Virus genome (UHGV): UHGV-1710763 | Direction: 5' to 3' (one strand) | Length of the DNA stretch: 28,122 bases | DNA from: a virus | Shown: piece after piece, positions 633-16,321 of the stretch | Position numbering within the stretch: position 1 is the first letter of the stretch | Layout of the letters: every line of letters starts with the position of its first letter | Made by a program: the position numbers and the translations under genes | The notes under the pieces: model-generated | Database searches by the model: none | The model's input: only the letters and a program-made list of their open reading frames with translations | Told to the model about the DNA's origin: nothing

Positions 633-1095
633 ACGTCTATCCAATCCTTATACAATCCCTTTCCCTCACCTTTCCAGAATCTTATCAGACCTTAAAAGCA
701 ATAACTCTATAGTCTACGCTATAACCTCTTATCAAATCAACTTAAATATAAGCCCATAACCCGAAAGGGAAGGGCAACCGTTTAAACGCTCTATAAAGCT
801 CTATAACAGCCTTATCAACCTAACTTAAGGGATTGCATTAACTCACCCTAAAAAGCCCTTTATAAAGCTTCCCAGAGACTTAAAAGAATCTTATAAGGGT
901 GTAAGCTTTATCGTCTCGTTAGTATTCTTGTGAATATCTAAAAAGGCTTGATAGTGTCTAAAAAGTATGTTATAGGGGCTATAAAGTTACTTTGAAGTAG
1001 CTTAAAAGTTACGTAAAAGAGGCTATAAAGTTACGTAAATGCTAGCCCCCTTAACATTTTCTTAACAATTTCTTAACAATCCCTACATAGTTATG

Positions 1096-1620
1096 CTTTT
1101 AAGGCACTTGTTAGCAACTTGTTAAATCTCTGTTAAGACCACGTAAAAGCCTTGTAAGAGTCTTTGACATAGCCTTAAAAGCTCCTGTAAAGCCCTATAA
1201 AGAGTTATCTGTACAGTTGAGGGGTAAATACTAGGAAGAGACTTAAAAGAGGCTATAAAGAGCTATAGAGGGCTTTTAAGAGGTATGTTTAAAGAATCAC
1301 TAAGAAGCAAAGGGAACGATAAGAAAAGAGATAGTGACCATGTTAATAGCTTGATAAAAAGATTAAACACTTGTTAGAAACTTGTTAATTATCTTAACAA
1401 AATAACTCTTAACATTTAACTACTTAGCCCTTGTTAGTCATTTGTTTAGATTCTGTAAAGCCTATTCAGCACTTGTTAGAAAACTGTTACGCCCTTGTTA
1501 GTTCTGTTAAGAATCTGTTAAGACCTTTGAAGAGTTGTTAAGAAGATGTGAGAACTGTTAAGAGATTGTTAAGGATATTTTAAAATTTTGCAAAGTACTT
1601 GTAAGGGAGCTGTTAAGGGC
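1096..1620. repeat. array of CTTGTTAG / CTGTTAAG / TTGTTAAG octamers (15 or more copies, irregular spacing)
   Basis: For example acttgttagcaacttgttaaatctctgttaag (1107-1137) and cttgttagttctgttaagaatctgttaagacc (1493-1525). Confidence 0.65.
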
Positions 1621-1985
1621 TACCAAGCAGATATACATCATGAGGTAGATTCTACCGAATCAACTAGACAGATATTTTTGAGTTCCTTCAAAGACCCTAA
1701 AAAATGACTTGACAGTCCTATTTTATAAAAATTTTAAGATTCTGAATAATTACCTATACAGTCTTTTAAAAATACAGGTAGAAACAGGCTTATAAGATAC
1801 CTTGTTAGTACCGTGTTAGACCTTGTGAGATAAGGTCTGTAAAGATATTCCTGTTAAGTTTGTTAAAACAGTCTATATAGAGGCTTAGTAGTACCTAGTG
1901 AACACCTATAGAGAGTGTCATAGCTAACCTAGAGATTAAGAGGTGTATAGGAGCTTCTAAGAGGGTATAGAGAGATGGTTAAGAT

Positions 1986-2080
1986 GATTGTATAGGTTGT
2001 TTAGAAGGCTTGTTAGAAGAGTGTTTAGATGGCTATTTAGAAGGGCTATACAGAGGGCTATTAAGACCACTAGATAGTTA
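1986..2080. repeat. tandem ~12-bp iteron-like repeats (GNNTGTTTAGAA x4, then GGGCTATACAGA / GGGCTATTAAGA)
   Basis: ggttgtttagaa|ggcttgttagaa|gagtgtttagat|ggctatttagaa|gggctatacaga|gggctattaaga read in register. Confidence 0.6.
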
Positions 2081-2213
2081 CTAAGATACTATATAGTACT
2101 ATATAACTATATATAGAGAGTAAGATTAAGAAGGTTGTTAAGAAGGATAGATATTTTATTCACATATGATGGTGACCCAGAGGTTGGGACAACCGATAAA
2201 ATTTTATAAAAAT

Positions 2214-2238
2214 TAAAAAGCCCCCAATTAAGGAGGCT
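2214..2238 (-). terminator. Rho-independent terminator ending the leftward operon
   Basis: Minus-strand reading AGCCTCC-TTAATT-GGGGGCT followed by TTTTT, 12 nt past the stop of the 2250..2468 gene. Confidence 0.55.
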
Positions 2239-2249
2239 CTTAAGATATT

Positions 2250-2468
2250 TTAAATCAGTGTTTCCAGAACTGTTTTCAATGATGACTTGGTTGTCTGATA
2301 AAAATGAGTGAACCCATTATTGTTATCGAATATCTGCATCATGATATCATCTCCCTTGATTGGGTACACTACACCAGTGGTGTCAACATCAAAGACCTTC
2401 ACAGAAGTAAGTGGTTTCTTTGTTTTAGAGCAGTAAACTGTCAATCTTTTACCAATAAGCTCTTTCAT
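2250..2468 (-). CDS. hypothetical protein (72 aa)
   Basis: ORF-track ORF, last gene of the leftward operon. Confidence 0.5.
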   Translation of the reverse strand: MKELIGKRLTVYCSKTKKPLTSVKVFDVDTTGVVYPIKGDDIMMQIFDNNNGFTHFYQTTKSSLKTVLETLI

Positions 2469-7676: not shown

Positions 7677-8267
7677 TTAAGCTTTGGTCTTAAGTAGGTT
7701 CTTAAGTTTTTTAAGATTCATACTCTCATCAAACTTAAAACCAAATCCATTGACATAATCAATGAACTCGGATTTCTTACTGAGTGACAATGCGTAACTC
7801 ATATCAAAGTTCTTACTTGTTTCTGCGTCTGGACTAGAGTTCACATCAAATGAAATTTCTGTAGGCTCTTGCTTACTTTTCCTCATATTATCAACCAACA
7901 AACATGTATAGTTTGCTGGATAGAAGTTTACACTACCATCAACGTAGCTGTACTTATTATTATGGATAAGGTTGGAAAATACCTTAAGGAATGTTTCTGA
8001 GTCGTGGCAAACAAGTTTGAATTGGCTGCTCTCTCCAAGCGCAACTAATGAGTACGGACTTTCACTATCAAAGTCATAATTTGGATTCGATGCCGTCACT
8101 GTTACACGCATCAAGTTATTAGCAATAGTCTTCTGTTTAAAAGAATTTTGAACATAGTGAAGACCTCTATCACACTGATTGACTAGCTCTTTAAGTAGGT
8201 CATTTGCATATGGTGAATTAATTGATACAGAGCCATCACTATTGTAATTAAAACTTACTGTTAACAT
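7677..8267 (-). CDS. hypothetical protein (196 aa)
   Basis: ORF-track ORF. Confidence 0.55.
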   Translation of the reverse strand: MLTVSFNYNSDGSVSINSPYANDLLKELVNQCDRGLHYVQNSFKQKTIANNLMRVTVTASNPNYDFDSESPYSLVALGESSQFKLVCHDSETFLKVFSNLIHNNKYSYVDGSVNFYPANYTCLLVDNMRKSKQEPTEISFDVNSSPDAETSKNFDMSYALSLSKKSEFIDYVNGFGFKFDESMNLKKLKNLLKTKA

Positions 8268-8494
8268 TTTTCAGTTCTCCTGCGATTTATGATTTTGCTG
8301 CAATAGAGAAACGAAGTAAACTCACTGGAAGAAACCATTAAGTGTTGTTCACTAGATTGAGCCATTGCCCTGAAATACATTCCAGTCAAAGCATCATAGT
8401 GACTATTCTTTCCAATTGAGGTTATATAGCCATGACTCTTTGCAGTTTGATATAAATCTATAATATCTGCGATTTCTAATTGGGAACTACACAT
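8261..8494 (-). CDS. hypothetical protein (77 aa)
   Basis: ORF-track ORF. Confidence 0.45.
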   Translation of the reverse strand: MCSSQLEIADIIDLYQTAKSHGYITSIGKNSHYDALTGMYFRAMAQSSEQHLMVSSSEFTSFLYCSKIINRRRTEKC

Positions 8495-8658
8495 AGATAA
8501 TCCTCTTGTCTTCTGTAATTTTGAAAGAACAGGTACAGACCAATTTCAGAGGATGAATAGTAGATTGACTCTACCCTTTTTGATTCCTTACAGTGATTGG
8601 TATTCTTACCTTTCTTCGGTTTATTTGATTTTCTCATTAAGTCTCCTTTGTAGAACAA
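8476..8658 (-). CDS. hypothetical basic protein (60 aa), first gene of the leftward operon
   Basis: ORF-track ORF. Confidence 0.4.
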   Translation of the reverse strand: MFYKGDLMRKSNKPKKGKNTNHCKESKRVESIYYSSSEIGLYLFFQNYRRQEDYLCVVPN

Positions 8659-8736
8659 GGCAGACCTACAGCTTTAAGTAAGATGGTACAGTAATCCATA
8701 CAACAAGTCAAGAACTATTGCAAGTTAAAAAAGTTG

Positions 8737-8765
8737 TTGACAAAGTACTTGACAAGGTGTAGGCT
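8737..8765 (+). promoter_or_regulatory. candidate sigma70-like promoter (TTGACA with a weak -10) inside the conserved AAAAAGTTGTTGACA context
   Basis: TTGACA at 8737-8742; -10 candidate TAGGCT at 17-nt spacing is poor, with TATAAAT further downstream; same upstream context as the stronger promoters. Confidence 0.3.
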
Positions 8766-8818
8766 TATAAATACTTAGAAGATTACTTAAAAGGTTCCTC
8801 TAAAAAGGCTATTTAAAC

Positions 8819-8838
8819 AGATATCTTTCTGGATATCT
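8819..8838. promoter_or_regulatory. 7-bp inverted repeat AGATATC-N6-GATATCT (possible operator)
   Basis: Perfect palindrome arms read directly in the region between the divergent gene blocks. Confidence 0.3.
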
Positions 8839-8886
8839 ATCTTTTATCTTAAAAGCCTTTTAAGAGGTCTTATAAGAGGCATACCA

Positions 8887-9258
8887 ATGAAAAACAGAAC
8901 AAACAAAGGCCAGTTTAAAAAAGGCCAGTCTGGAAACCCATCTGGAAGACCCAAAGGCTCTCGTAACAAAAGTTCACTCGTAAAAGCTCAACTGACCATT
9001 GATAATTCTGCTGAGTTTGCTGCAAAGTTGTTTGAGGCGATTGTTACAAGGGACGCTGCTAAGCTTGCAGAGTTCGGGTTAAACACAGACGACGTAACCA
9101 TCAAGAGTATGATTGAGGTCGGTAAAACTATCATGACTCACTCAGCAGGTGAGATGAAAGCCATTGCAGCAGACACTAAGAAGACTCCTGATAATGGTGG
9201 TCAACAACAGACAGATAACAAACCAACGTTCTCTGCTGTAGCGACTCTTAAAAAATAA
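8887..9258 (+). CDS. hypothetical protein with N-terminal basic GNPSGRPKGSRNK motif (possible nucleic-acid binding)
   Basis: ORF-track ORF starting at an ATG; the motif resembles basic N-termini of phage DNA-binding proteins. Confidence 0.55.
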   Translation: MKNRTNKGQFKKGQSGNPSGRPKGSRNKSSLVKAQLTIDNSAEFAAKLFEAIVTRDAAKLAEFGLNTDDVTIKSMIEVGKTIMTHSAGEMKAIAADTKKTPDNGGQQQTDNKPTFSAVATLKK

Positions 9259-9339: not shown

Positions 9340-10755
9340 ATGAGCGAATTATTTAAACATGCGCACCTTCATGCAGGTCGAACTGAAAATGGTGCTGTAA
9401 ACCATACTTCATCAATGTCTGCTCTTGTAGACTTTTACAAAGCTGCTGGTTCAAGCCGTAGCAATGTAGAAATCTTACCAGACCTGTTCTACAAAGCTTT
9501 GCGTGAGGATGTTGATGTTGCAGTTCGTATTTTACTGCATATGCGAGATGTACGAGAAGGTATGGGTGAGCGTAAAGCCTTCAGAACTGTTTTGCTTCAA
9601 GCAATTGAAGATAAAGTTTTAGAGCCTACACAGGTTCTTCGCATTATGGATAAGATTGCAGAACTTGGTCGTTTTGATGACTTCAAAATCTTCGTAGGTA
9701 CTCGTTTCGAGACAGATGCCTTCAAACATTTAGAAGCAGCATTACTAGACCCTGCAACAGCAGGTTTGGCAGCTAAGTGGTTACCACGAGTAAAACCACG
9801 TCACAAACAGTTTGTAAAACGTTTCTGCAAGTTTGCAAACTTGAGTGAGAAGGAGTATCGCACACTGTTATCTGCACTGTCTGATACGGTTGAGCAAAAA
9901 ATCTCTGCTAATGAGTTTGGTAAGATTGACTACAGTAAGATTCCTTCACTTGCTGCTGCACGTTACCAAAAACTCTTTAACCGTAAAGATGGAGAACGCT
10001 ACAAAGCTTACATTGAGTCCTTATCAAAGGGCGAGACTAAGATTAATGCTGGTGCTGTTTATCCATACGATGTGATTAAATCTGTTAAGTATGGTAATGC
10101 AGATGTTGCTAATGAGCAGTGGAAAGCACTACCAAACTGGATGGCAGAGGGTGAAAACATTCTATGTATGTCTGATGTTTCAAGTTCAATGTCTTGGGTG
10201 AATTTTGGTTCAATTACTGCTCTTGATATTGGTGTTTCACTTGCATTGTATGTAGCAGAACGTAATACAGGTTGCTTTAAGAATGAGTTGATGGTTTATT
10301 CAACAAACCCTCACTTCATTGAACTGAGTGGTGATTTACGAAACCGTCATCGTCAGGTGATGCGACACGTTGAATATGGCTCAACTAACTTACAAGCAGC
10401 TTTTGACCGTATTCTTGAGACAGGTAAAAGAAACAACTTGACTCAGAAAGATATGCCAAGTAAGCTTATCATCTTCTCCGATATGGAGTTCAATCAGGTT
10501 GATGGAGCTAACGGTCGTACAAACTTTGAAGCAATTCAGAGTAAGTACAAAAAAGCTGGATATGAGATGCCACAACTGGTATTCTGGTACTTAGCAAACC
10601 GTAATGGCACTTGCGAAGTATCTGTTAAGGATAACGGTGTAGCAATGGTATCTGGTTTCTCTCCAGCCACTTTAAAAGCTTTGCTTGGTGGTGAGAAGTT
10701 TGACCCAATCAGCGTAATGCTCAAAGCAGTAATGATTGACCGTTATATCTGGTAA
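9340..10755 (+). CDS. Ro60/TROVE-like protein: alpha-helical N-terminal region plus C-terminal vWA domain with MIDAS motif (Rsr-like)
   Basis: MIDAS DxSxS in ILCMSDVSSSMSW; C-terminal IIFSDMEF; YPYDVIKSV segment; helical N-terminus. These parallel Ro60 segments as recalled from memory (HPFHILIAL, LLAVDVSASMN, VFIVFTDNE). Confidence 0.55.
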   Translation: MSELFKHAHLHAGRTENGAVNHTSSMSALVDFYKAAGSSRSNVEILPDLFYKALREDVDVAVRILLHMRDVREGMGERKAFRTVLLQAIEDKVLEPTQVLRIMDKIAELGRFDDFKIFVGTRFETDAFKHLEAALLDPATAGLAAKWLPRVKPRHKQFVKRFCKFANLSEKEYRTLLSALSDTVEQKISANEFGKIDYSKIPSLAAARYQKLFNRKDGERYKAYIESLSKGETKINAGAVYPYDVIKSVKYGNADVANEQWKALPNWMAEGENILCMSDVSSSMSWVNFGSITALDIGVSLALYVAERNTGCFKNELMVYSTNPHFIELSGDLRNRHRQVMRHVEYGSTNLQAAFDRILETGKRNNLTQKDMPSKLIIFSDMEFNQVDGANGRTNFEAIQSKYKKAGYEMPQLVFWYLANRNGTCEVSVKDNGVAMVSGFSPATLKALLGGEKFDPISVMLKAVMIDRYIW

Positions 10756-10920: not shown

Positions 10921-10997
10921 CTCTGTTTAGCTCAGCTTGGTAGAGCGTTCCGTTTGGGGCGGTAAGGCCGGAGGTTCAAGTCCTCCAACAGAGACCA
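10921..10997 (+). tRNA. tRNA-Pro (anticodon TGG)
   Basis: Hand-folded cloverleaf: acceptor CTCTGTT / AACAGAG, D-arm GCTC..GAGC, anticodon loop TTTGGGG, T-arm GGAGG-TTCAAGT-CCTCC, encoded CCA. Confidence 0.7.
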
Positions 10998-11004
10998 AAT
11001 TAAT

Positions 11005-11082
11005 GTTCCAGTAGACAAAATGGTAAAGTCACCACTCTTTCAAAGTGGATATCTGAGGGTTCAAATCCCTTCTGGAACGCCA
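11005..11082 (+). tRNA. tRNA-Glu (anticodon TTC)
   Basis: Acceptor GTTCCAG / CTGGAAC; anticodon stem CCACT / AGTGG with loop CTTTCAA; T-loop TTCAAAT; CCA. Confidence 0.75.
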
Positions 11083-11173
11083 GTTTTGACAGAAGACCAA
11101 TTACAGCAAACTTAATCTTATTCATCTGAAGGTAAATCGGACAAAGAAGAGATTTGGTCTGGTCATTAAGAAT

Positions 11174-11250
11174 TGCGGGTATAGAGAAAGGGCGTCTCAC
11201 ATGTCTCATTAGCATGGTATCGGCAGGTTCGACTCCTGCACCCGCCTCCA
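11174..11250 (+). tRNA. tRNA with CAT anticodon (Met, fMet or Ile-lysidine; identity unresolved)
   Basis: Anticodon stem CATGT / GCATG with loop CTCATTA; T-arm GCAGG-TTCGACT-CCTGC; acceptor has a 1:72 mismatch; CCA. Confidence 0.65.
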
Positions 11251-11334
11251 AATTTACAGAAGACCGTTTACAGCAATACTTATTAAATTTTTAGCGGAAA
11301 AAATTGAAATATACGGTCTGGTAATACTAAACAT

Positions 11335-11411
11335 GGTTAGGAAGCACATAAGGTATGTGCGGTCGCCTGTTAAGCGAATGGCACAGGGTTCGAATCCCTG
11401 ACTAACCGCCA
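11335..11411 (+). tRNA. tRNA-Asn (anticodon GTT)
   Basis: Acceptor GGTTAGG / ACTAACC; D-arm GCAC..GTGC; loop CTGTTAA; T-arm CAGGG-TTCGAAT-CCCTG; CCA. Confidence 0.75.
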
Positions 11412-11480
11412 AATTTAGGAGAGAAGCAATTGCTCACCGATTTGTAAGGTGCAAGTCCTTAGCCTGAATAGAAATTAAAT

Positions 11481-11568
11481 GTGTCGTTATCCCGTAGATG
11501 GTAGCGGTGGGGACTGTAAATCCCTTGTCATTGAGACTCGGTAGGTTCGACTCCTACACGGCACACCA
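11481..11568 (+). tRNA. tRNA-Tyr (anticodon GTA), class II with long variable arm
   Basis: Acceptor GTGTCGT / ACGGCAC; anticodon stem GGGGA / TCCCT with loop CTGTAAA; ~15-nt variable arm; T-arm GTAGG-TTCGACT-CCTAC; CCA. Confidence 0.65.
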
Positions 11569-11573
11569 ATAAA

Positions 11574-11651
11574 GGTTATGTAGTTTAATTTGGTTAAAAT
11601 ACTCCCCTGTCACGGGAGATGATGAGGGTTCAAATCCCTTCGTAACCGCCA
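11574..11651 (+). tRNA. tRNA-Asp (anticodon GTC)
   Basis: Acceptor GGTTATG / CGTAACC; anticodon stem CTCCC / GGGAG with loop CTGTCAC; T-loop TTCAAAT; CCA. Confidence 0.75.
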
Positions 11652-11834
11652 ATTTTGAGAGGGCTATTTAGCCCCTCCCTTAAAGGGTTCTTACGAGTAT
11701 CCTTTAAAGGAGCAGAAGACCAAATACAGCAAGTTACTTAAAATTTCAAGCCAATTTAATTTTGAAAAATTTAAAACTTGGTCTGGCTCAACAAATTTAC
11801 AGAAGACCGTTTACAGCAAAACTTAAACAATCTA

Positions 11835-11907
11835 TTTCTCCGGTAAAGAAAAGGCGAAGGTTCGATTCCTTCACTCGGCAGATGTCGAGTTGGTGTAATG
11901 GTAGCAC
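11835..11907 (+). ncRNA. circularly permuted tRNA-like element (anticodon-like hairpin, T-arm, acceptor stem closed by an AGAT loop, D-arm); candidate Y-RNA-like tRNA mimic
   Basis: Order read directly: TTTCT-CCGGTAA-AGAAA, GAAGG-TTCGATT-CCTTC, ACTCGGC-AGAT-GTCGAGT (7 bp), TG, GTG-TAATGGTAG-CAC; no 5' acceptor partner upstream and no 3' half downstream. Confidence 0.35.
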
Positions 11908-11932
11908 TTAAGATGATAAACAACGGTCTGGT

Positions 11933-12076
11933 AATTATCTTTGTAGATAAGTTATTAAGCTTACCTGTGAGTATGCGACCACAAAGGGTGAAAGGGTAAA
12001 TTCTAGATTTAAACCTAACAAGGCACATCGCTACAGACCTTAAGCAAGTCTGGGTAGCTTATCTACAAAGATAATT
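11933..12076. repeat. perfect 18-19-bp inverted repeat flanking a ~106-bp segment (long hairpin, possible RNase III site or miniature element)
   Basis: ATTATCTTTGTAGATAAG at 11934-11951 is the exact reverse complement of CTTATCTACAAAGATAAT at 12058-12075. Confidence 0.6.
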
Positions 12077-12080
12077 TAAT

Positions 12081-12156
12081 GGAAGTGTAGCAGAATGGTG
12101 ATGCGGCAGACTTTTAATCTGACAGGCGATGGGTTCGAATCCCTCCACTTCTACCA
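12081..12156 (+). tRNA. tRNA-Lys (anticodon TTT)
   Basis: Acceptor GGAAGTG / CACTTCT; anticodon loop CTTTTAA; T-loop TTCGAAT; CCA; paralogue of the Lys(CTT) gene at 13309. Confidence 0.75.
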
Positions 12157-12161
12157 AAAAT

Positions 12162-12238
12162 GGTTCAGTCGCAGATAAGGTAATGCAAGGGTTTCATAAG
12201 CCCTATGAATGTGGGTTCGATTCCCACCTGAACCTCCA
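12162..12238 (+). tRNA. tRNA with CAT anticodon (second copy; Met / fMet / Ile2 unresolved)
   Basis: Acceptor GGTTCAG / CTGAACC perfect; anticodon stem AGGGT / GCCCT with loop TTCATAA; T-arm GTGGG-TTCGATT-CCCAC; CCA. Confidence 0.7.
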
Positions 12239-12239
12239 A

Positions 12240-12315
12240 GCTGGTATAGTTAAGAAGGTTATAACACTCCCCTGATAAGGGAACATCGGTGGTTCGATTC
12301 CACCTACCAGTACCA
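12240..12315 (+). tRNA. tRNA-Ile (anticodon GAT)
   Basis: D-arm GTTA..TAAC; anticodon loop CTGATAA; T-arm GGTGG-TTCGATT-CCACC; CCA. Confidence 0.7.
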
Positions 12316-12330
12316 ATTTCAATAAAGTTG

Positions 12331-12359
12331 TTGACATTGAGATGTGACTACTTTATAGT
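12331..12359 (+). promoter_or_regulatory. strong sigma70-like promoter inside the tRNA island (TTGACA-17-TATAGT)
   Basis: TTGACA 12331-12336, exactly 17-nt spacer, TATAGT 12354-12359, with the AATAAAGTTGTTGACA upstream context. Confidence 0.6.
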
Positions 12360-12562
12360 AACCTTAGTTTTCGTTGCGTAGCGTCTATTTTGCAAATTTA
12401 AAATAAATGCAAACGACAATGTTTTTCTGGCAGTAGCTTGATAGGCTAAACACCAGTGAGGTCTTCCAATCCCTCATCAAAGAATTTGGCGTACTAGCCC
12501 ACGGTATGATTAATAAGGTGGGCATCTTTAAGGGCTTTCTAAGAGAGTCTTTAAAGATTAAT

Positions 12563-12639
12563 GCACCCTTAGTTCAATTGGATAGAGCAACGGTCTTCTA
12601 AATCGTTAGTTACAGGTTCGAATCCTGTAGGGTGTACCA
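12563..12639 (+). tRNA. tRNA-Arg (anticodon TCT)
   Basis: Acceptor GCACCCT / AGGGTGT; D-arm GTTC..GAGC; anticodon stem ACGGT / ATCGT with loop CTTCTAA; T-arm ACAGG-TTCGAAT-CCTGT; CCA. Confidence 0.75.
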
Positions 12640-12780
12640 ATTAGTTAGCAGATTACTTAGACGACCTAAGCGGGTCTTCCTGTAGGGAGGTGGTCTGTAT
12701 CTCATGTTTTCCAGAACATGTAAATAATCTGAGAAGGGGCTTTACAGTGTTGAGATAATACGGTAAGCTTCGAATTATAG

Positions 12781-12867
12781 TATGGGACGATGTTAAGACT
12801 CTAAGGCATGAGCAACGGCTTCCAACACCGTTTCAAAGGGGTTCAACTCATCCGTCCCATGCCAAAG
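12781..12867 (+). ncRNA. unresolved tRNA-like structured element (11-bp terminal stem, 9-nt-loop hairpin with CTTCCAA, T-loop-like GGGGTTCAA, ends GCCA)
   Basis: TATGGGACGATG pairs with CATCCGTCCCATG; internal hairpin AACGG-CTTCCAACA-CCGTT; no canonical cloverleaf could be drawn. Confidence 0.3.
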
Positions 12868-12877
12868 TCTTATTAGG

Positions 12878-12965
12878 GGTAGGTAGCGGCTAATGGTAGC
12901 CAAACAGTCTTGAAAACTGTTGCCACTGTAGAGATACGGTGAGGGTTCGACTCCTTTACTTACCG
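12878..12965 (+). tRNA. tRNA-Ser (anticodon TGA), class II; CCA not encoded
   Basis: Acceptor GGTAGGT / ACTTACC; anticodon stem ACAGT / ACTGT perfect with loop CTTGAAA; long variable arm; T-loop TTCGACT. Confidence 0.6.
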
Positions 12966-13223
12966 CCTAATAAGATTTTACACCGTCCATGCTTGCTCGC
13001 ATTTTCGGTTTATCCCTCGTGTATTGTCGTACACACTGATAAAGCACCTAGTAGGTGTCACGGAGAAGAGATAATATCAAGCTCTCCAAAGGTTCTAGCC
13101 ACCGGATTAAACAAGACTATGCAAAGACCTTTTTAGGTCTTTTTAGAGGGCTTCTAAGGTTATTACAGCTTGTTGTGGAACCTTGTTGCTTAGGTTCTTA
13201 GAAGTTCTCTAAAAAGATTTAAT

Positions 13224-13301
13224 GGGAGATTGACGGTAATTGGTAAACCTACCATCCTTAGAAGTTGGTGTTTGAGGGTTCGAATCCCTTGTCTCCTACC
13301 A
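13224..13301 (+). tRNA. tRNA, anticodon provisionally TAG (Leu) on a class-I-length scaffold; identity uncertain
   Basis: Acceptor GGGAGAT / GTCTCCT (two G-U pairs); loop CTTAGAA between CCATC / GTTGG (one mismatch); T-arm GAGGG-TTCGAAT-CCCTT; CCA; D-arm irregular. Confidence 0.5.
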
Positions 13302-13308
13302 AATTAAT

Positions 13309-13384
13309 GCAGGTGTAGCAAAATGGTTATGCGGCTGACTCTTAATCAGTAAGACGATGGGTTCAATTCCCTCCACCTGTACCA
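13309..13384 (+). tRNA. tRNA-Lys (anticodon CTT)
   Basis: Acceptor GCAGGTG / CACCTGT; anticodon stem GCTGA / TCAGT with loop CTCTTAA; T-loop TTCAATT; CCA. Confidence 0.75.
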
Positions 13385-13391
13385 AACAATG

Positions 13392-13467
13392 GGGGTCATA
13401 GTTTATATGGTTAAAATTCGAGTTTTGCAAACTTGGGAACTGAGTTCAATTCTCAGTGACTCCACCA
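13392..13467 (+). tRNA. tRNA-Ala (anticodon TGC)
   Basis: Acceptor GGGGTCA / TGACTCC; anticodon stem CGAGT / ACTTG with loop TTTGCAA; T-arm CTGAG-TTCAATT-CTCAG; CCA. Confidence 0.75.
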
Positions 13468-13473
13468 ATTAGT

Positions 13474-13548
13474 GCATCCATAGTTTAAACGGGAAAATTA
13501 CAGTCTTCCAAACTGAGGTTGAGGGTTCGATTCCCTCTGGATGCTCCA
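13474..13548 (+). tRNA. tRNA-Gly (anticodon TCC)
   Basis: Acceptor GCATCCA / TGGATGC perfect; loop CTTCCAA; T-arm GAGGG-TTCGATT-CCCTC; CCA. Confidence 0.75.
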
Positions 13549-13562
13549 AATTAAGGTGTGAT

Positions 13563-13976
13563 ATGAAAATATGCAGTACTTGCAGAATACCAAAAGATGA
13601 AAGCTTATTCCATAAGAATAAGAACAAGAAAGACGGTCTTCAAAGTCAATGCAAAGATTGTGCAAGACTTCGTGATGCAAAGAGTTATCAAGCAAATGAT
13701 AAAAGGAAAGAGGCTATTAAAAGCACTCGTAACTTCAAGAGAGAGCATAACAAGACTCTAGCTAGAAGGTACAAAGCTTTATGCAAATGTCATATATGTG
13801 GTGAGAAAGAACCAGTTGCACTGGATTTACACCATACAGACCCTTCCCAGAAAGATTTGAATCCTGCATCACTTTATTCATACTCCACAAAAAGATTAAA
13901 AGATGAAATCAGAAAGTGCATTGTCTTGTGCGCTAACTGTCACAGAAAAGTACATGCTGGTATCATAAAAGTTTAA
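13563..13976 (+). CDS. HNH family endonuclease (free-standing homing-endonuclease-like gene)
   Basis: Cys pairs CKDC and CKCHIC plus an HNH core (LDLHHTD ... N ... CANCHRKVH) in the translation; sits between tRNA-Gly and tRNA-Thr. Confidence 0.7.
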   Translation: MKICSTCRIPKDESLFHKNKNKKDGLQSQCKDCARLRDAKSYQANDKRKEAIKSTRNFKREHNKTLARRYKALCKCHICGEKEPVALDLHHTDPSQKDLNPASLYSYSTKRLKDEIRKCIVLCANCHRKVHAGIIKV

Positions 13977-13977
13977 T

Positions 13978-14054
13978 GCTGCTTTCGTATAATTGGCTAT
14001 TACACATCCCTTGTAAGGATGGAAATGCAGGTTCGAGTCCTGTGAGCAGCACCA
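13978..14054 (+). tRNA. tRNA-Thr (anticodon TGT)
   Basis: Acceptor GCTGCTT / GAGCAGC; anticodon stem CATCC / GGATG perfect with loop CTTGTAA; T-loop TTCGAGT; CCA; starts 2 nt after the HNH stop codon. Confidence 0.8.
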
Positions 14055-14149
14055 ATTCAGAGGTCAAGTGAAAGACCGCTGGTGTCAACTGAAGACCGTA
14101 ACAAATTCCACGGAGTTGAGTTAGCGGCACAACTTCAGACCTCTTTCAT

Positions 14150-14224
14150 ACTCGCTTAGTTTATATGGTAAAACATCACCCTTACAAGATGAAGAGAAAG
14201 GTTCAAGCCCTTTAGTGAGTACCA
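14150..14224 (+). tRNA. tRNA-Val (anticodon TAC)
   Basis: Acceptor ACTCGCT / AGTGAGT; D-arm GTTT..AAAC; loop CTTACAA; T-arm AAAGG-TTCAAGC-CCTTT; CCA. Confidence 0.65.
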
Positions 14225-14225
14225 T

Positions 14226-14303
14226 GTTCCAGTATCCCAATTGGCAGAGGATGCAAGCTCAAACCTTGTACTAGTGACGGTTCGAATCCGTCTTGGAACA
14301 CCA
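14226..14303 (+). tRNA. tRNA with CAA anticodon (Leu-type) but only a 6-nt variable region
   Basis: Acceptor GTTCCAG / TTGGAAC; anticodon stem GCAAG / CTTGT with loop CTCAAAC; T-arm GACGG-TTCGAAT-CCGTC; A73; CCA. Confidence 0.6.
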
Positions 14304-14308
14304 ATTTT

Positions 14309-14384
14309 GCAGGATTAGTTCAAATGGATAGAGCAACAGTCTACGAAGCTGTTAATAGGGGTTCGAATCCCTTATCCTGCGCCA
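14309..14384 (+). tRNA. tRNA-Arg (anticodon ACG)
   Basis: Acceptor GCAGGAT / ATCCTGC perfect; D-arm GTTC..GAGC; anticodon stem ACAGT / GCTGT with loop CTACGAA; T-loop TTCGAAT; CCA. Confidence 0.8.
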
Positions 14385-14403
14385 ATTTAAAGAGGCTATT
14401 TAG

Positions 14404-14961
14404 ATGAGATATTTGAAGTATGCTTCATGGATTTTCTTAGCTTTGTTAGAGCCATTTGCAGCAATCTTAGCAGTTATCTTAGCACCTTTTGTAGTTCCAT
14501 TCTACAGTGAGAAGAAAGGACACTTACCTTTCGGATTCAGATGGATGGAGACATATGACAACCCAATTGATGGTGATGAAGGTCACGTTAAAAGATGGGC
14601 TAATATTAGATGGATTGGTAAACTAGGTGTCTACATGCAAAGAGTCGGATGGCTCTGGAGAAACAAAGCTTATAACTTCTCTTACCATGTATTAGGAAGA
14701 GATGTAAAAGATGTTACTAAGTGGAAAGGTAATATCAACGTAAGTTCTAACCCTGAAGATAATCAGACAGGTTATCTCCTAATGTGGAACAGCAATGCTT
14801 GGGGATTATTCGCTTTTATCCCATCAATTAAAATCTTTGGTAAACAGTTCTACTGGAGAATTTATATTGGGTGGAAGCTAAAAAGTGTTGTCCCAGAAGA
14901 AAGAGCATTCTCAAGGGAAAGAGTTATGTTGGCATTCTTTATTCATCCACTAAGAAAGTAA
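14404..14961 (+). CDS. hypothetical membrane protein (hydrophobic N-terminus, Trp-rich)
   Basis: ORF-track ORF; N-terminal hydrophobic stretch WIFLALLEPFAAILAVILAPFVV; embedded between tRNA genes. Confidence 0.55.
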   Translation: MRYLKYASWIFLALLEPFAAILAVILAPFVVPFYSEKKGHLPFGFRWMETYDNPIDGDEGHVKRWANIRWIGKLGVYMQRVGWLWRNKAYNFSYHVLGRDVKDVTKWKGNINVSSNPEDNQTGYLLMWNSNAWGLFAFIPSIKIFGKQFYWRIYIGWKLKSVVPEERAFSRERVMLAFFIHPLRK

Positions 14962-14969
14962 AGATTTAA

Positions 14970-15045
14970 AGGGGATTAGTTTACAAGGTTAAAACCTCGG
15001 TCTTTGAAATCGAAGAAGTTGGTTCAATTCCAACATCCCCCGCCA
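14970..15045 (+). tRNA. tRNA-Gln (anticodon TTG)
   Basis: D-arm GTTT..AAAC; anticodon stem TCGGT / ATCGA with loop CTTTGAA; T-arm GTTGG-TTCAATT-CCAAC; weak 1:72 pair; CCA. Confidence 0.7.
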
Positions 15046-15047
15046 AT

Positions 15048-15126
15048 GCTCCATTACTCCAATTGGCAGAGAGGCCAGACTTAAAATCTGTGTTATGTAT
15101 CGGTTCGAATCCGATATGGAGTACCA
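15048..15126 (+). tRNA. tRNA with TAA anticodon (Leu-type) but only a 7-nt variable region
   Basis: Acceptor GCTCCAT / ATGGAGT; anticodon loop CTTAAAA; T-arm ATCGG-TTCGAAT-CCGAT; A73; CCA. Confidence 0.6.
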
Positions 15127-15131
15127 AATTT

Positions 15132-15207
15132 AGCGGTATAGCATAACTGGCAATGCAACAGTCTCTGAAGCTGTCTTATTAAGGTTCAAATCCTTATGCC
15201 GCTGCCA
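15132..15207 (+). tRNA. tRNA-Gln (anticodon CTG)
   Basis: Acceptor AGCGGTA / TGCCGCT; anticodon stem ACAGT / GCTGT with loop CTCTGAA; T-arm TAAGG-TTCAAAT-CCTTA; CCA. Confidence 0.7.
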
Positions 15208-15238
15208 CTTCTAAGGGTTCTTACGAGAGTCCTTAAAT

Positions 15239-15314
15239 GTGGCCTTATCATAAATGGTAATGACCCATGCTGTGAACATGGTCTATACGGGTTCAAATCC
15301 CGTAGGTCACCCCA
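15239..15314 (+). tRNA. tRNA-His (anticodon GTG)
   Basis: Acceptor GTGGCCT / AGGTCAC; D-arm TCAT..ATGA; anticodon stem CCATG / CATGG perfect with loop CTGTGAA; C73 discriminator; CCA. Confidence 0.75.
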
Positions 15315-15321
15315 ATTTATA

Positions 15322-15396
15322 GTCCAAGTAGCTTATATGGTTAAAGCGCGTGTCTGAAAAACATGAGAAGAGGGTTCAAATCCCACTGGACTACCA
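15322..15396 (+). tRNA. tRNA-Phe (anticodon GAA); acceptor register ambiguous
   Basis: D-arm GCTT..AAGC; anticodon stem CGTGT / ACATG with loop CTGAAAA; T-loop TTCAAAT; ends ACCA. Confidence 0.65.
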
Positions 15397-15412
15397 ATTT
15401 CAAAGGTGCTTA

Positions 15413-16147
15413 ATGAAAGAGATGACAGAACAAGGTAAGGAGATTTTTAATCTCTTAAAAACCGGTAAAGGGTTTTCTAACCCACTTATTACTGGTGCAG
15501 CAGTTCTCGGTGGAACCGTAGCTGCCTCTACATCACTTGTAAGCTCTATTAGCTCTGTAACAGACCCTACAACGAAGGAGAAACTTGTTGCTGCTGGACT
15601 TACAACAGTTCTTCTAAACAGCTTTACAACAAGCCTGACAAGCACTACAGCAACTACTAAGACCCTAACAGACTACGGTCAAAAGTCTATTGATGAGTTT
15701 TCATCACGTATGCAGGTGGCAAAGGGATATTCCAATGTTATGGGTGCAGCAGGAGAACAAGTTGGTTGTACACCATTCAGTGGTATTATGGGTGTTGCTA
15801 CAGAGTATGGTCAGCAAGCTATTGACATGATTAACAGCACACTAGACAGTGTTAACGGTGTGTTAAGTGACTTACAAGATGCTATTGACAAGGGTCTTGA
15901 TACTGTTTCTGATTTAGCTAACCAAGCTGTAAGTAAGATTAATGAAGGTATTTCAAAGATTACAGCTTATGCAGATGAAGTTGTGCAGATGATTGAAGAA
16001 GAAGCTGCCCTTATTGCAGAGTACCTTAAAACGAATATCAATGGGTTCTTAGCAGGTATCTTACCAGACTGGTTTGATGATGCCTGTAAAACTGGTGTAA
16101 TTGACACTATTGCAACACCAGAAATGAAGAACGCATTACAGAAATAA
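15413..16147 (+). CDS. hypothetical Ser/Thr-rich protein; start moved downstream of the track ORF (15350) to the first ATG clear of tRNA-Phe
   Basis: Track ORF 15350..16147 overlaps the tRNA at 15322-15396; the in-frame ATG at 15413 has AAAGGTG upstream. Confidence 0.55.
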   Translation: MKEMTEQGKEIFNLLKTGKGFSNPLITGAAVLGGTVAASTSLVSSISSVTDPTTKEKLVAAGLTTVLLNSFTTSLTSTTATTKTLTDYGQKSIDEFSSRMQVAKGYSNVMGAAGEQVGCTPFSGIMGVATEYGQQAIDMINSTLDSVNGVLSDLQDAIDKGLDTVSDLANQAVSKINEGISKITAYADEVVQMIEEEAALIAEYLKTNINGFLAGILPDWFDDACKTGVIDTIATPEMKNALQK

Positions 16148-16148
16148 T

Positions 16149-16241
16149 GGAAGATTAACCCTAAAAGGTAAGGGAGCAGTTTGCTAAACTGCCAGTAGCT
16201 GAGAAATCGGTGTACCAGTTCAAGTCTGGTATCTTCCTCCA
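16149..16241 (+). tRNA. tRNA-Ser (anticodon GCT), class II with long variable arm
   Basis: Acceptor GGAAGAT / ATCTTCC perfect; anticodon stem GCAGT / ACTGC perfect with loop TTGCTAA; ~20-nt variable arm; T-arm ACCAG-TTCAAGT-CTGGT; CCA. Confidence 0.8.
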
Positions 16242-16245
16242 ATTT

Positions 16246-16321
16246 GAATCCGTGACAGAAATGGCTATGTGCCTGTCTGCAAAACAGGTTTATAAGGGTT
16301 CGAGTCCCTTCGGATTCTCCA
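16246..16321 (+). tRNA. tRNA-Cys (anticodon GCA)
   Basis: Acceptor GAATCCG / CGGATTC perfect; anticodon stem CCTGT / ACAGG perfect with loop CTGCAAA; T-arm AAGGG-TTCGAGT-CCCTT; CCA. Confidence 0.8.

Follow-up and report, generated by a model that had tools for sequence, protein, structure and literature searches.

A 12-nt repeat array beside the predicted terminal repeat in a Felix O1-like phage genome and its possible role in genome-end cutting and packaging

The stretch of phage DNA analyzed here (28,122 nt; hereafter the window) comes from a Felixounavirus (Felix O1-like myophage, Ounavirinae) that is about 95–96% identical to many database records, and the tandem 12-bp repeats that an earlier note had reported at positions 1986–2080 are present as described. 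These repeats are one variable-copy cluster of a family of short words (TGTTAAGA / TTGTTAGA / CTATWNAG, roughly CTNNNNAG) that extends far beyond the array, and the array more likely serves genome-end cutting and packaging than the start of replication. The note had read the repeats as a replication origin or an initiator-binding site, and this proves to be partly right: a true short-unit array, which is likely to be a protein-binding one, does lie beside easily melted DNA, whereas nothing shows origin activity, and several points favor another role.

Base autocorrelation over 1986–2080 gave a peak at lag 12 (z = 5.8) and a second one at lag 24 (z = 4.0), and the lag-12 value was matched, at any lag from 6 to 36, by 0 of 500 dinucleotide-preserving shuffles, which bears out the proposed period. 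Because lags 6, 9, 15, and 18 are flat in the same segment, codon periodicity is ruled out as its source. Tandem Repeats Finder agrees with the autocorrelation, reporting period 12 at 2000–2066 (5.5 copies, 69% matches, score 55) together with a period-24 row. The six to eight units in register of the earlier note correspond to six contiguous units on the + strand, which form a core array at 1997–2068 with the consensus GGCTTGTTAGAA / GGGCTATWMAGA, and to weaker units that flank it on either side. The in-register units are TTGTTTAGAAGG (starting at 1997), CTTGTTAGAAGA (2009), GTGTTTAGATGG (2021), CTATTTAGAAGG (2033), GCTATACAGAGG (2045), and GCTATTAAGACC (2057). When the autocorrelation was widened to 1940–2135, the lag-12 signal still reached z = 5.0, and because of this persistence the array is judged to be longer than first noted, covering about 1925–2150 with units of 11–12 nt, all in + orientation, including TTAAGAGG / TATAGGAG / CTAAGAGG / TATAGAGAGA / GGTTAAGA. 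A repeat family (D7) joins 1994–2015, 2018–2039, and 2132–2153.

The ATATAG-rich tract beside the array is equally real. The segment at 2086–2116 is the least stable 30-bp duplex in the 28 kb, with a nearest-neighbor ΔG of −27.2 kcal/mol against a window-wide mean of −38.5 kcal/mol (sd 2.6). This TA-rich tract contains a perfect 16-bp palindrome, TATATAGTACTATATA, at 2090–2105, and a (TA)n run beside the 12-nt array that differs in length among relatives. In the alignment, CTATATAGTACTATATAA of the tract is kept in Felixounavirus and Suspvirus and carries a one-base insertion in Mooglevirus. A hairpin or cruciform at this place was considered and rejected, the single-strand fold energy being ordinary (z = 0.11). 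Between the arrays and the terminator-like hairpin that follows them lies a further block, TCACATATGATGGTGACCC (2157–2180), which overlaps a non-conserved DnaA-box match; the block itself is kept in the sequences of Felixounavirus and, for the most part, in those of Mooglevirus and Suspvirus.

The array lies in a gene-free region of about 1.65 kb (573–2250), in which no open reading frame (ORF) of at least 40 aa occurs and just short non-ATG ORFs overlap the array. Two gene blocks converge on this gap: the rightward block stops at 572 and the leftward block at 2250, and each is closed by a terminator-like hairpin (611–627, + strand, and 2216–2241, − strand, respectively), both with homologous terminators annotated in phage ASO1A. 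A coding gene or an RNA gene at the array was rejected, given the lack of an ORF of that size and two sub-threshold Rfam matches, which fall at the terminator; a promoter cluster in the gene-free region was likewise rejected, eight sigma-70-like sites being found against 6.1 ± 2.6 expected. The junction region is apparently untranscribed. It is AT-rich (33–34% GC), and it forms a local maximum of the cumulative GC skew, the minimum of which is reached at about 8.5–9 kb. Conservation of the region extends to 286 phage records; short “repeat_region” features are marked there in some GenBank records, and gene-free gaps of similar size are found in Mooglevirus Maleficent (1.6 kb) and Suspvirus SUSP1 (1.7 kb). 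The flanking ORFs (324–572, 2250–2468, and 2521–2745) match PHROG families of unknown function only and have no Pfam domain. The first leftward ORF (2250–2468, − strand, 72 aa) looks like an in-frame fusion created by a deletion: its residues 1–39 match the start of phrog_7193 and its residues 32–72 the end of phrog_4330, and relatives have these as two distinct genes, about 150 and 180 aa long. A separate observation concerns the window as a whole (1–28122), which has not a single GATC site where dinucleotide-preserving shuffles predict 79 ± 9; such avoidance of a Dam/MboI-type site is striking.

The ends of the genome can be placed in this region by homology. Felix O1-like phages carry a direct terminal repeat (DTR) that is short and non-permuted; in UAB_Phi87, a DTR of 608 bp was mapped by Bal31 digestion and run-off sequencing (PMC4837284); its sequence (AACATTTTC...GGGCTACCAA; AACATTTTCTTAACAA … GATGTTAAGGGCTACCAA), which was taken from Figure S1 of that paper, the GenBank record not having been opened at its termini, aligns to window positions 1053–1626. 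In Ro111lw, a DTR of 613 bp was determined by PhageTerm (PMC6454146), and the record of this phage, which starts at window position 1045 and ends at 1624, carries an exact 613-bp repeat at both ends. Furthermore, the records of H12, NBSal004, and Mooglevirus HP1 begin at window position 1045, those of E9 and SPJ41 finish at 1624, and the HP1 record annotates its DTR as 1–570. The 20-mers at the two boundaries are 97% and 100% conserved among 15 genomes of three genera. Because these terminus records place the DTR at about 1045–1624, the gap is identified as the concatemer junction, comprising a right-end unique non-coding segment (573–1044) with CTTAAAAG/CTATAAAG/CTAAAAAG units at about 11 nt, a predicted DTR of about 580 bp (1045–1624), and a left-end unique non-coding segment (1625–2250) that holds the 12-nt array. 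By the same homology, the array at 1986–2080 lies 360–455 bp to the right of the predicted DTR and ~940–1035 bp from the left physical end.

Beyond the right DTR boundary, where the fully conserved 20-mer ends, about 40 bp (1633–1672) form the most variable part of the region, with an identity of 0.45–0.48, and in most relatives homology resumes only at about 1668. Just outside the left boundary, at 977–1039, there is a 22-nt tandem repeat (GGCTATAAAGTTACGTAAAAGA, 2.9 copies); the conservation of 993–1012 is low (0.42), possibly as a result of copy-number variation of this repeat.

The words of which the array is made are not confined to it. The whole gap is built from degenerate CTNNNNAG 8-mers, among them CTTGTTAG, CTGTTAAG, CTTAAAAG, CTATAAAG, and CTATATAG, together with TGTTAAGA-type words, and 67 copies of CTNNNNAG occur at 600–2250, that is, 40.6/kb compared with 10.2/kb in the remaining window, with start-to-start spacings of mostly 10–12 or 21–23 nt. 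On the + strand, TRTWWAGA reaches 9.5/kb in the region against 0.45/kb outside it, a 21-fold enrichment, and it shows strand polarity in the region (16 copies on the + strand and 5 on the − strand); TGTTAAG is enriched 18-fold. Over 610–2250, the autocorrelation at lag 11 reaches z = 9.2 and harmonics appear at 21–22 and 31–32, and equal-sized coding blocks give no signal at lags 10–11. The period is about 11 nt in 610–1624 and 12 nt in 1625–2250 (z = 5.5 at lag 12), and in the right-end segment (573–1044) the motif starts are phased with a resultant of R = 0.81 at a period of 11.05. Maleficent and SUSP1 share the period, the top words, and the motif density (39 and 34/kb, respectively) with the window. 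In addition, conservation is higher at the CT and AG motif edges than in the spacers, both within the genus (0.925 versus 0.886) and in other genera (0.859 versus 0.763); this motif-edge conservation peaks at a register shift of 0, although a shift of +5 comes close within the genus (0.923).

The same family marks both edges of the predicted DTR. Inverted TGTTAAG copies at 11-nt spacing (CCCTTAACA N5 TTAACA N5 TTAACA) lie on the − strand at the left edge (1048–1079), and a matching arm (…CTTGTAAGGGAGCTGTTAAGGG, followed by CTACC) lies on the + strand at the right edge (1588–1619); these two segments are paired by the inverted repeats I1 and I2. Read inward, the left predicted terminus is GCC·CCCTTAACA·TTTTC·TTAACA·ATTTC·TTAACA, and the right one is GGTAG·CCCTTAACA·GCTCC·CTTACA. 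Thus the reverse complement of TGTTAAGGG sits in inverted orientation 3–5 nt inside each predicted cut, further copies follow 11 nt apart, and the end-to-end match on inward reading holds in the window, in Ro111lw, and in Mooglevirus HP1. The 12-nt array words TTGTTAGA, TGTTTAGA, and TATTAAGA belong to the same family as this DTR-edge word. Over a somewhat wider span, the edges of the predicted DTR (1045–1088 and 1546–1624) are mutually inverted. These inverted edge copies are candidates for the sites at which the terminase recognizes and cuts the DNA; repeated elements of the kind expected around such sites, CCCTTAACA N5 TTAACA, are found at both predicted cuts.

Among 21 relatives, the array contains 4–7 units and changes in 12-nt steps, such that the conserved anchors around it are 48, 59/60, 71/72, or 83 nt apart, and none of these relatives has fewer than four units. 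The array segment at 2013–2032 is one of the three least conserved spots, with an identity of 0.64 against 0.85–0.99 elsewhere. In the more distant Erwinia phage Hena2 (Kolesnikvirus), blastn aligns nothing of the left flank with window positions 1625–2250; nevertheless, TGTTAAGA recurs at 11-nt spacing in the DTR-homologous stretch, and the left flank carries two arrays of 3–4 copies at 12–13-nt spacing (620–652 and 780–824), one of which adjoins an AT-rich tract. Arrays of the shared word with a period of 12–13 nt are present in Kolesnikvirus, Mooglevirus, and Suspvirus, and the layout recurs in four Ounavirinae genera. Because Hena2 keeps the architecture while the copy number varies, the feature is judged to be old and maintained, with a free number of units; the same variation in copy number shows that the exact array is not critical.

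We put at about even the chance that a phage DNA-binding protein belonging to the machinery for genome-end cutting and packaging uses the motif as its recognition unit, and we infer both the binding of a protein to the motif and the role of that protein in packaging. A feasible model may be that the motif is bound by a small-terminase-like factor of the terminus-generating and packaging machinery, and that arrays at about one helical turn would allow an oligomer to bind cooperatively or to wrap the DNA. The bound complex would mark the junction and place the terminase so that both cuts are made and the DTR is duplicated; on the left flank, the array at 1997–2068 may be an auxiliary site for loading that tolerates 4–7 units. 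Several points run against this model: the array is 360 bp away from the nearest predicted cut rather than adjacent to it, its copy number is variable, the T7 array that serves as the parallel has no proven function, and the least stable tract in the window has no obvious role in packaging and would suit an unwinding element.

No small terminase is known in Felix O1-like phages (PMC3185647). A possible candidate is a 123-aa DUF5681 protein encoded at 8887–9258 on the + strand, which has a basic N-terminal motif (KKGQSGNPSGRPKGSRNK) and the gene of which opens the rightward operon leading to the large terminase. A similarly sized gene, corresponding to it by position and size only, holds this place in Hena2, where the tRNA island makes up most of what lies between it and the large terminase. 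The DUF5681 protein has no sequence match in the PDB, no NCBIfam match, and no terminase annotation, the names of its homologues are uninformative, and its AlphaFold model is of low confidence (pLDDT 65). In the window, a block of 26 tRNA genes, broken by small ORFs, occupies 10921–16321; one ORF within it (13563–13976) is HNH endonuclease-like, and upstream of the block a 471-aa phrog_850 protein (9340–10755) is annotated as RNA-binding, its apparent counterpart in Bas63, gp130, being called Ro60-like in the PhageMaP paper (10.1101/2024.10.10.617714). That paper, a knockout screen of Bas63, reports nothing on the region discussed here (10.1101/2024.10.10.617714), and the arrays are not described in the Felix O1, VpaE1, or UAB_Phi87 papers.

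Of the other readings, we regard a replication origin, in which a phage or host initiator would bind the 12-nt units as iterons and the adjacent TA tract would act as the unwinding element, as unlikely, albeit the least unlikely of them. The regular 12-nt array, seen both by Tandem Repeats Finder and by autocorrelation, directly adjoins the least stable 30-mer in 28 kb; Hena2 also pairs a 12–13-nt TGTTAAGA array with an AT-rich tract; and there is a DnaA-box match, TTATTCACA, at 2156–2164. Such an origin could be a late or end-proximal one: ICP1 shifts late in infection to an origin near one genome end (PMC7145576). The T4 oriE carries evenly spaced 12-nt repeats, although in T4 the link between iterons and origin is itself unproven (PMC3016281). 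The DnaA and IHF boxes that would accompany an origin do not exceed chance level and are not conserved. Two DnaA boxes were found versus 1.63 expected; for the one at 2156, a match to TTATNCACA, three Felixounavirus relatives have TTGTTCACA in its place, and the Mooglevirus and Suspvirus sequences lack it. Only one match to the IHF consensus exists, and none of the flanking ORFs (324–572, 2250–2468, and 2521–2745) is an initiator-like gene. Classical iterons are three or more initiator-binding repeats of 17–22 bp placed about two helical turns apart, whereas the units of this array are 12 nt long and contiguous, and a search for similarity to plasmid iterons gave no match to any plasmid record. 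Moreover, a copy number that ranges from 4 to 7 among close relatives argues for another role, and an origin leaves unexplained the about 65 motif copies over 1.65 kb and those at the terminus cuts. The array also lies where transcription converges and the cumulative GC skew has a local maximum, with the skew minimum at 8.5–9 kb, but this argument is weak because the skew follows the gene strand. No origin mapping for Felix O1-like phages was found in the searchable literature. The divergent intergenic region at 8267–8953, which coincides with the skew minimum and contains short 12-nt tandem repeats at 8820–8842, 8857–8879, and 8929–8953, is an alternative place for an origin or for early and late promoters. 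Packaging and replication roles could also coexist, and it is tempting to speculate, as a long shot, that the 1.65-kb silent region is a sequence-coded scaffold that couples the two in one element. In that case, about 65 phased copies of the word would assemble a large nucleoprotein complex, a “packaging centromere,” at the junction; the complex would set both terminus cuts via the inverted copies at the DTR edges; and, on the left flank, the 12-nt array and the easily melted, palindromic TA tract would together let DNA synthesis enter to duplicate the DTR or, alternatively, serve a late end-proximal origin.

Two further readings dispense with a dedicated phage protein or with a function of the array itself. 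Phased AT-rich and GC-rich units could make the DNA curved or easily wrapped, or could provide sites for host nucleoid proteins, and thereby aid condensation or ejection of the genome end or keep the region transcriptionally silent; we consider such a structural role improbable, to about the same degree as the coupled scaffold. A period near one helical turn over 1.65 kb, the low GC content (33–34%), the position of the best A/T-versus-G/C periodicity window of the 28 kb (1801–2100), and the combination of unenriched promoters with bracketing terminators are all in line with it. However, the A/T-versus-G/C periodicity elsewhere is modestly above background and the phase is lost across the region (overall resultant R = 0.37), so that a long-range curvature signal, with modest periodicity power outside 1801–2100 and an incoherent phase, was rejected; only one IHF consensus match is present; what is conserved is a specific set of words, with CT..AG edges more constant than the interior and with strand polarity; and copies of the motif sit precisely at both predicted cut sites. 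Least probable of all, in our estimate, is a functionally neutral slippage repeat (VNTR) inside an otherwise functional non-coding region. The gain and loss of whole units in clean 12-nt steps (4 to 7 among close relatives), the low identity of 2013–2032 (0.64, among the three least conserved segments), and the variable length of the adjoining (TA)n run are what slippage would produce. Against this, an array of the same word with a period of 12–13 nt occupies the corresponding position in Kolesnikvirus even though this flank has no blastn match there, the array is present rather than absent in Mooglevirus and Suspvirus as well, and not one of the 21 relatives has dropped below four units.

Among known systems, the closest analogue, analogous rather than homologous, is found in the arrays of short repeats beside the terminal repeat of T7, which Dunn and Studier reportedly named SRL/SRR in 1983. 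In the T7 record, CCTAAAG-type heptamers follow the 160-bp repeat in at least nine copies at 175–340, which lie 13 or 26 nt apart (lag 13, z = 9.0). Both phages would have a short, exact, and non-permuted DTR, which is assigned by homology in the window, and in both the non-coding DNA beside the DTR holds many words of 7–8 nt at a spacing just over one helical turn. The words themselves are similar, CCTAAAG/CTTAAAG/ACTTAAAAG in T7 compared with CTTAAAAG/CTATAAAG/CTGTAAAG in the right-end and DTR arrays of the window (680–1300), a resemblance that could reflect chance, a shared host factor, or a physical requirement. Single sites appear to be dispensable in both: T7 tolerates single insertions at most loci of its ends (10.1101/2024.10.10.617714), and in the phages described here the copy number varies. 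By contrast, the two belong to unrelated phage families, the present one being an Ounavirinae myovirus, and lack sequence homology, sharing only YTAAAG; the repeat-rich region is about 10 times longer in the window (1.65 kb) and also fills the DTR; inverted motif copies lie at both predicted cuts in the window; the period is 10–12 nt rather than the 13 nt of T7; and the genes of the window point to both ends without promoters for a phage RNA polymerase, whereas T7 has phiOL at 405. Neither array has a proven function.

Other comparisons are more distant. The lambda cosB R sites, the P1 pac hexamers, and the SPP1 pacL/pacR are terminase recognition sites made of repeated elements; the reader of these elements is a small terminase, an oligomer by which the DNA is bent or wrapped. 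The window resembles these in the clustering of short repeated words around a DNA cleavage site, predicted in this case, and differs from them in scale, the known sites having 3–7 elements over tens to a few hundred base pairs against about 65 over 1.65 kb. The iteron origins of plasmids and lambdoid phages likewise have direct repeats that adjoin an AT-rich, easily melted tract; in the window, however, the units are contiguous 12-bp ones and are accompanied neither by a flanking initiator gene nor by a conserved DnaA box. The 12-nt repeats of the T4 oriE are similarly conserved at syntenic places and suspected of binding protein (PMC3016281), but oriE is a mapped origin near a point of transcriptional divergence, whereas the array described here lies at a point of convergence at the genome ends. 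Even for T4, a review states that no link has been established between the iterons and oriE activity (PMC3016281).

Felix O1-like phages find wide use in Salmonella typing, in biocontrol, and in therapy, and they also serve as chassis in phage engineering. Many database records open the genome elsewhere than at the physical end, and some call small ORFs inside the gene-free region; knowledge of the motif layout helps both to set genome starts correctly in annotation and to design constructs that can be packaged. The motif and its layout at both predicted cuts give the search for the recognition protein something concrete to aim at. The array is not a new kind of element; it is a handle on the unsolved problem of packaging recognition within a well-known phage group. 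Furthermore, the recurrence of repeat arrays beside the terminal repeat in a myovirus lineage unrelated to T7 argues that such arrays have a general role.
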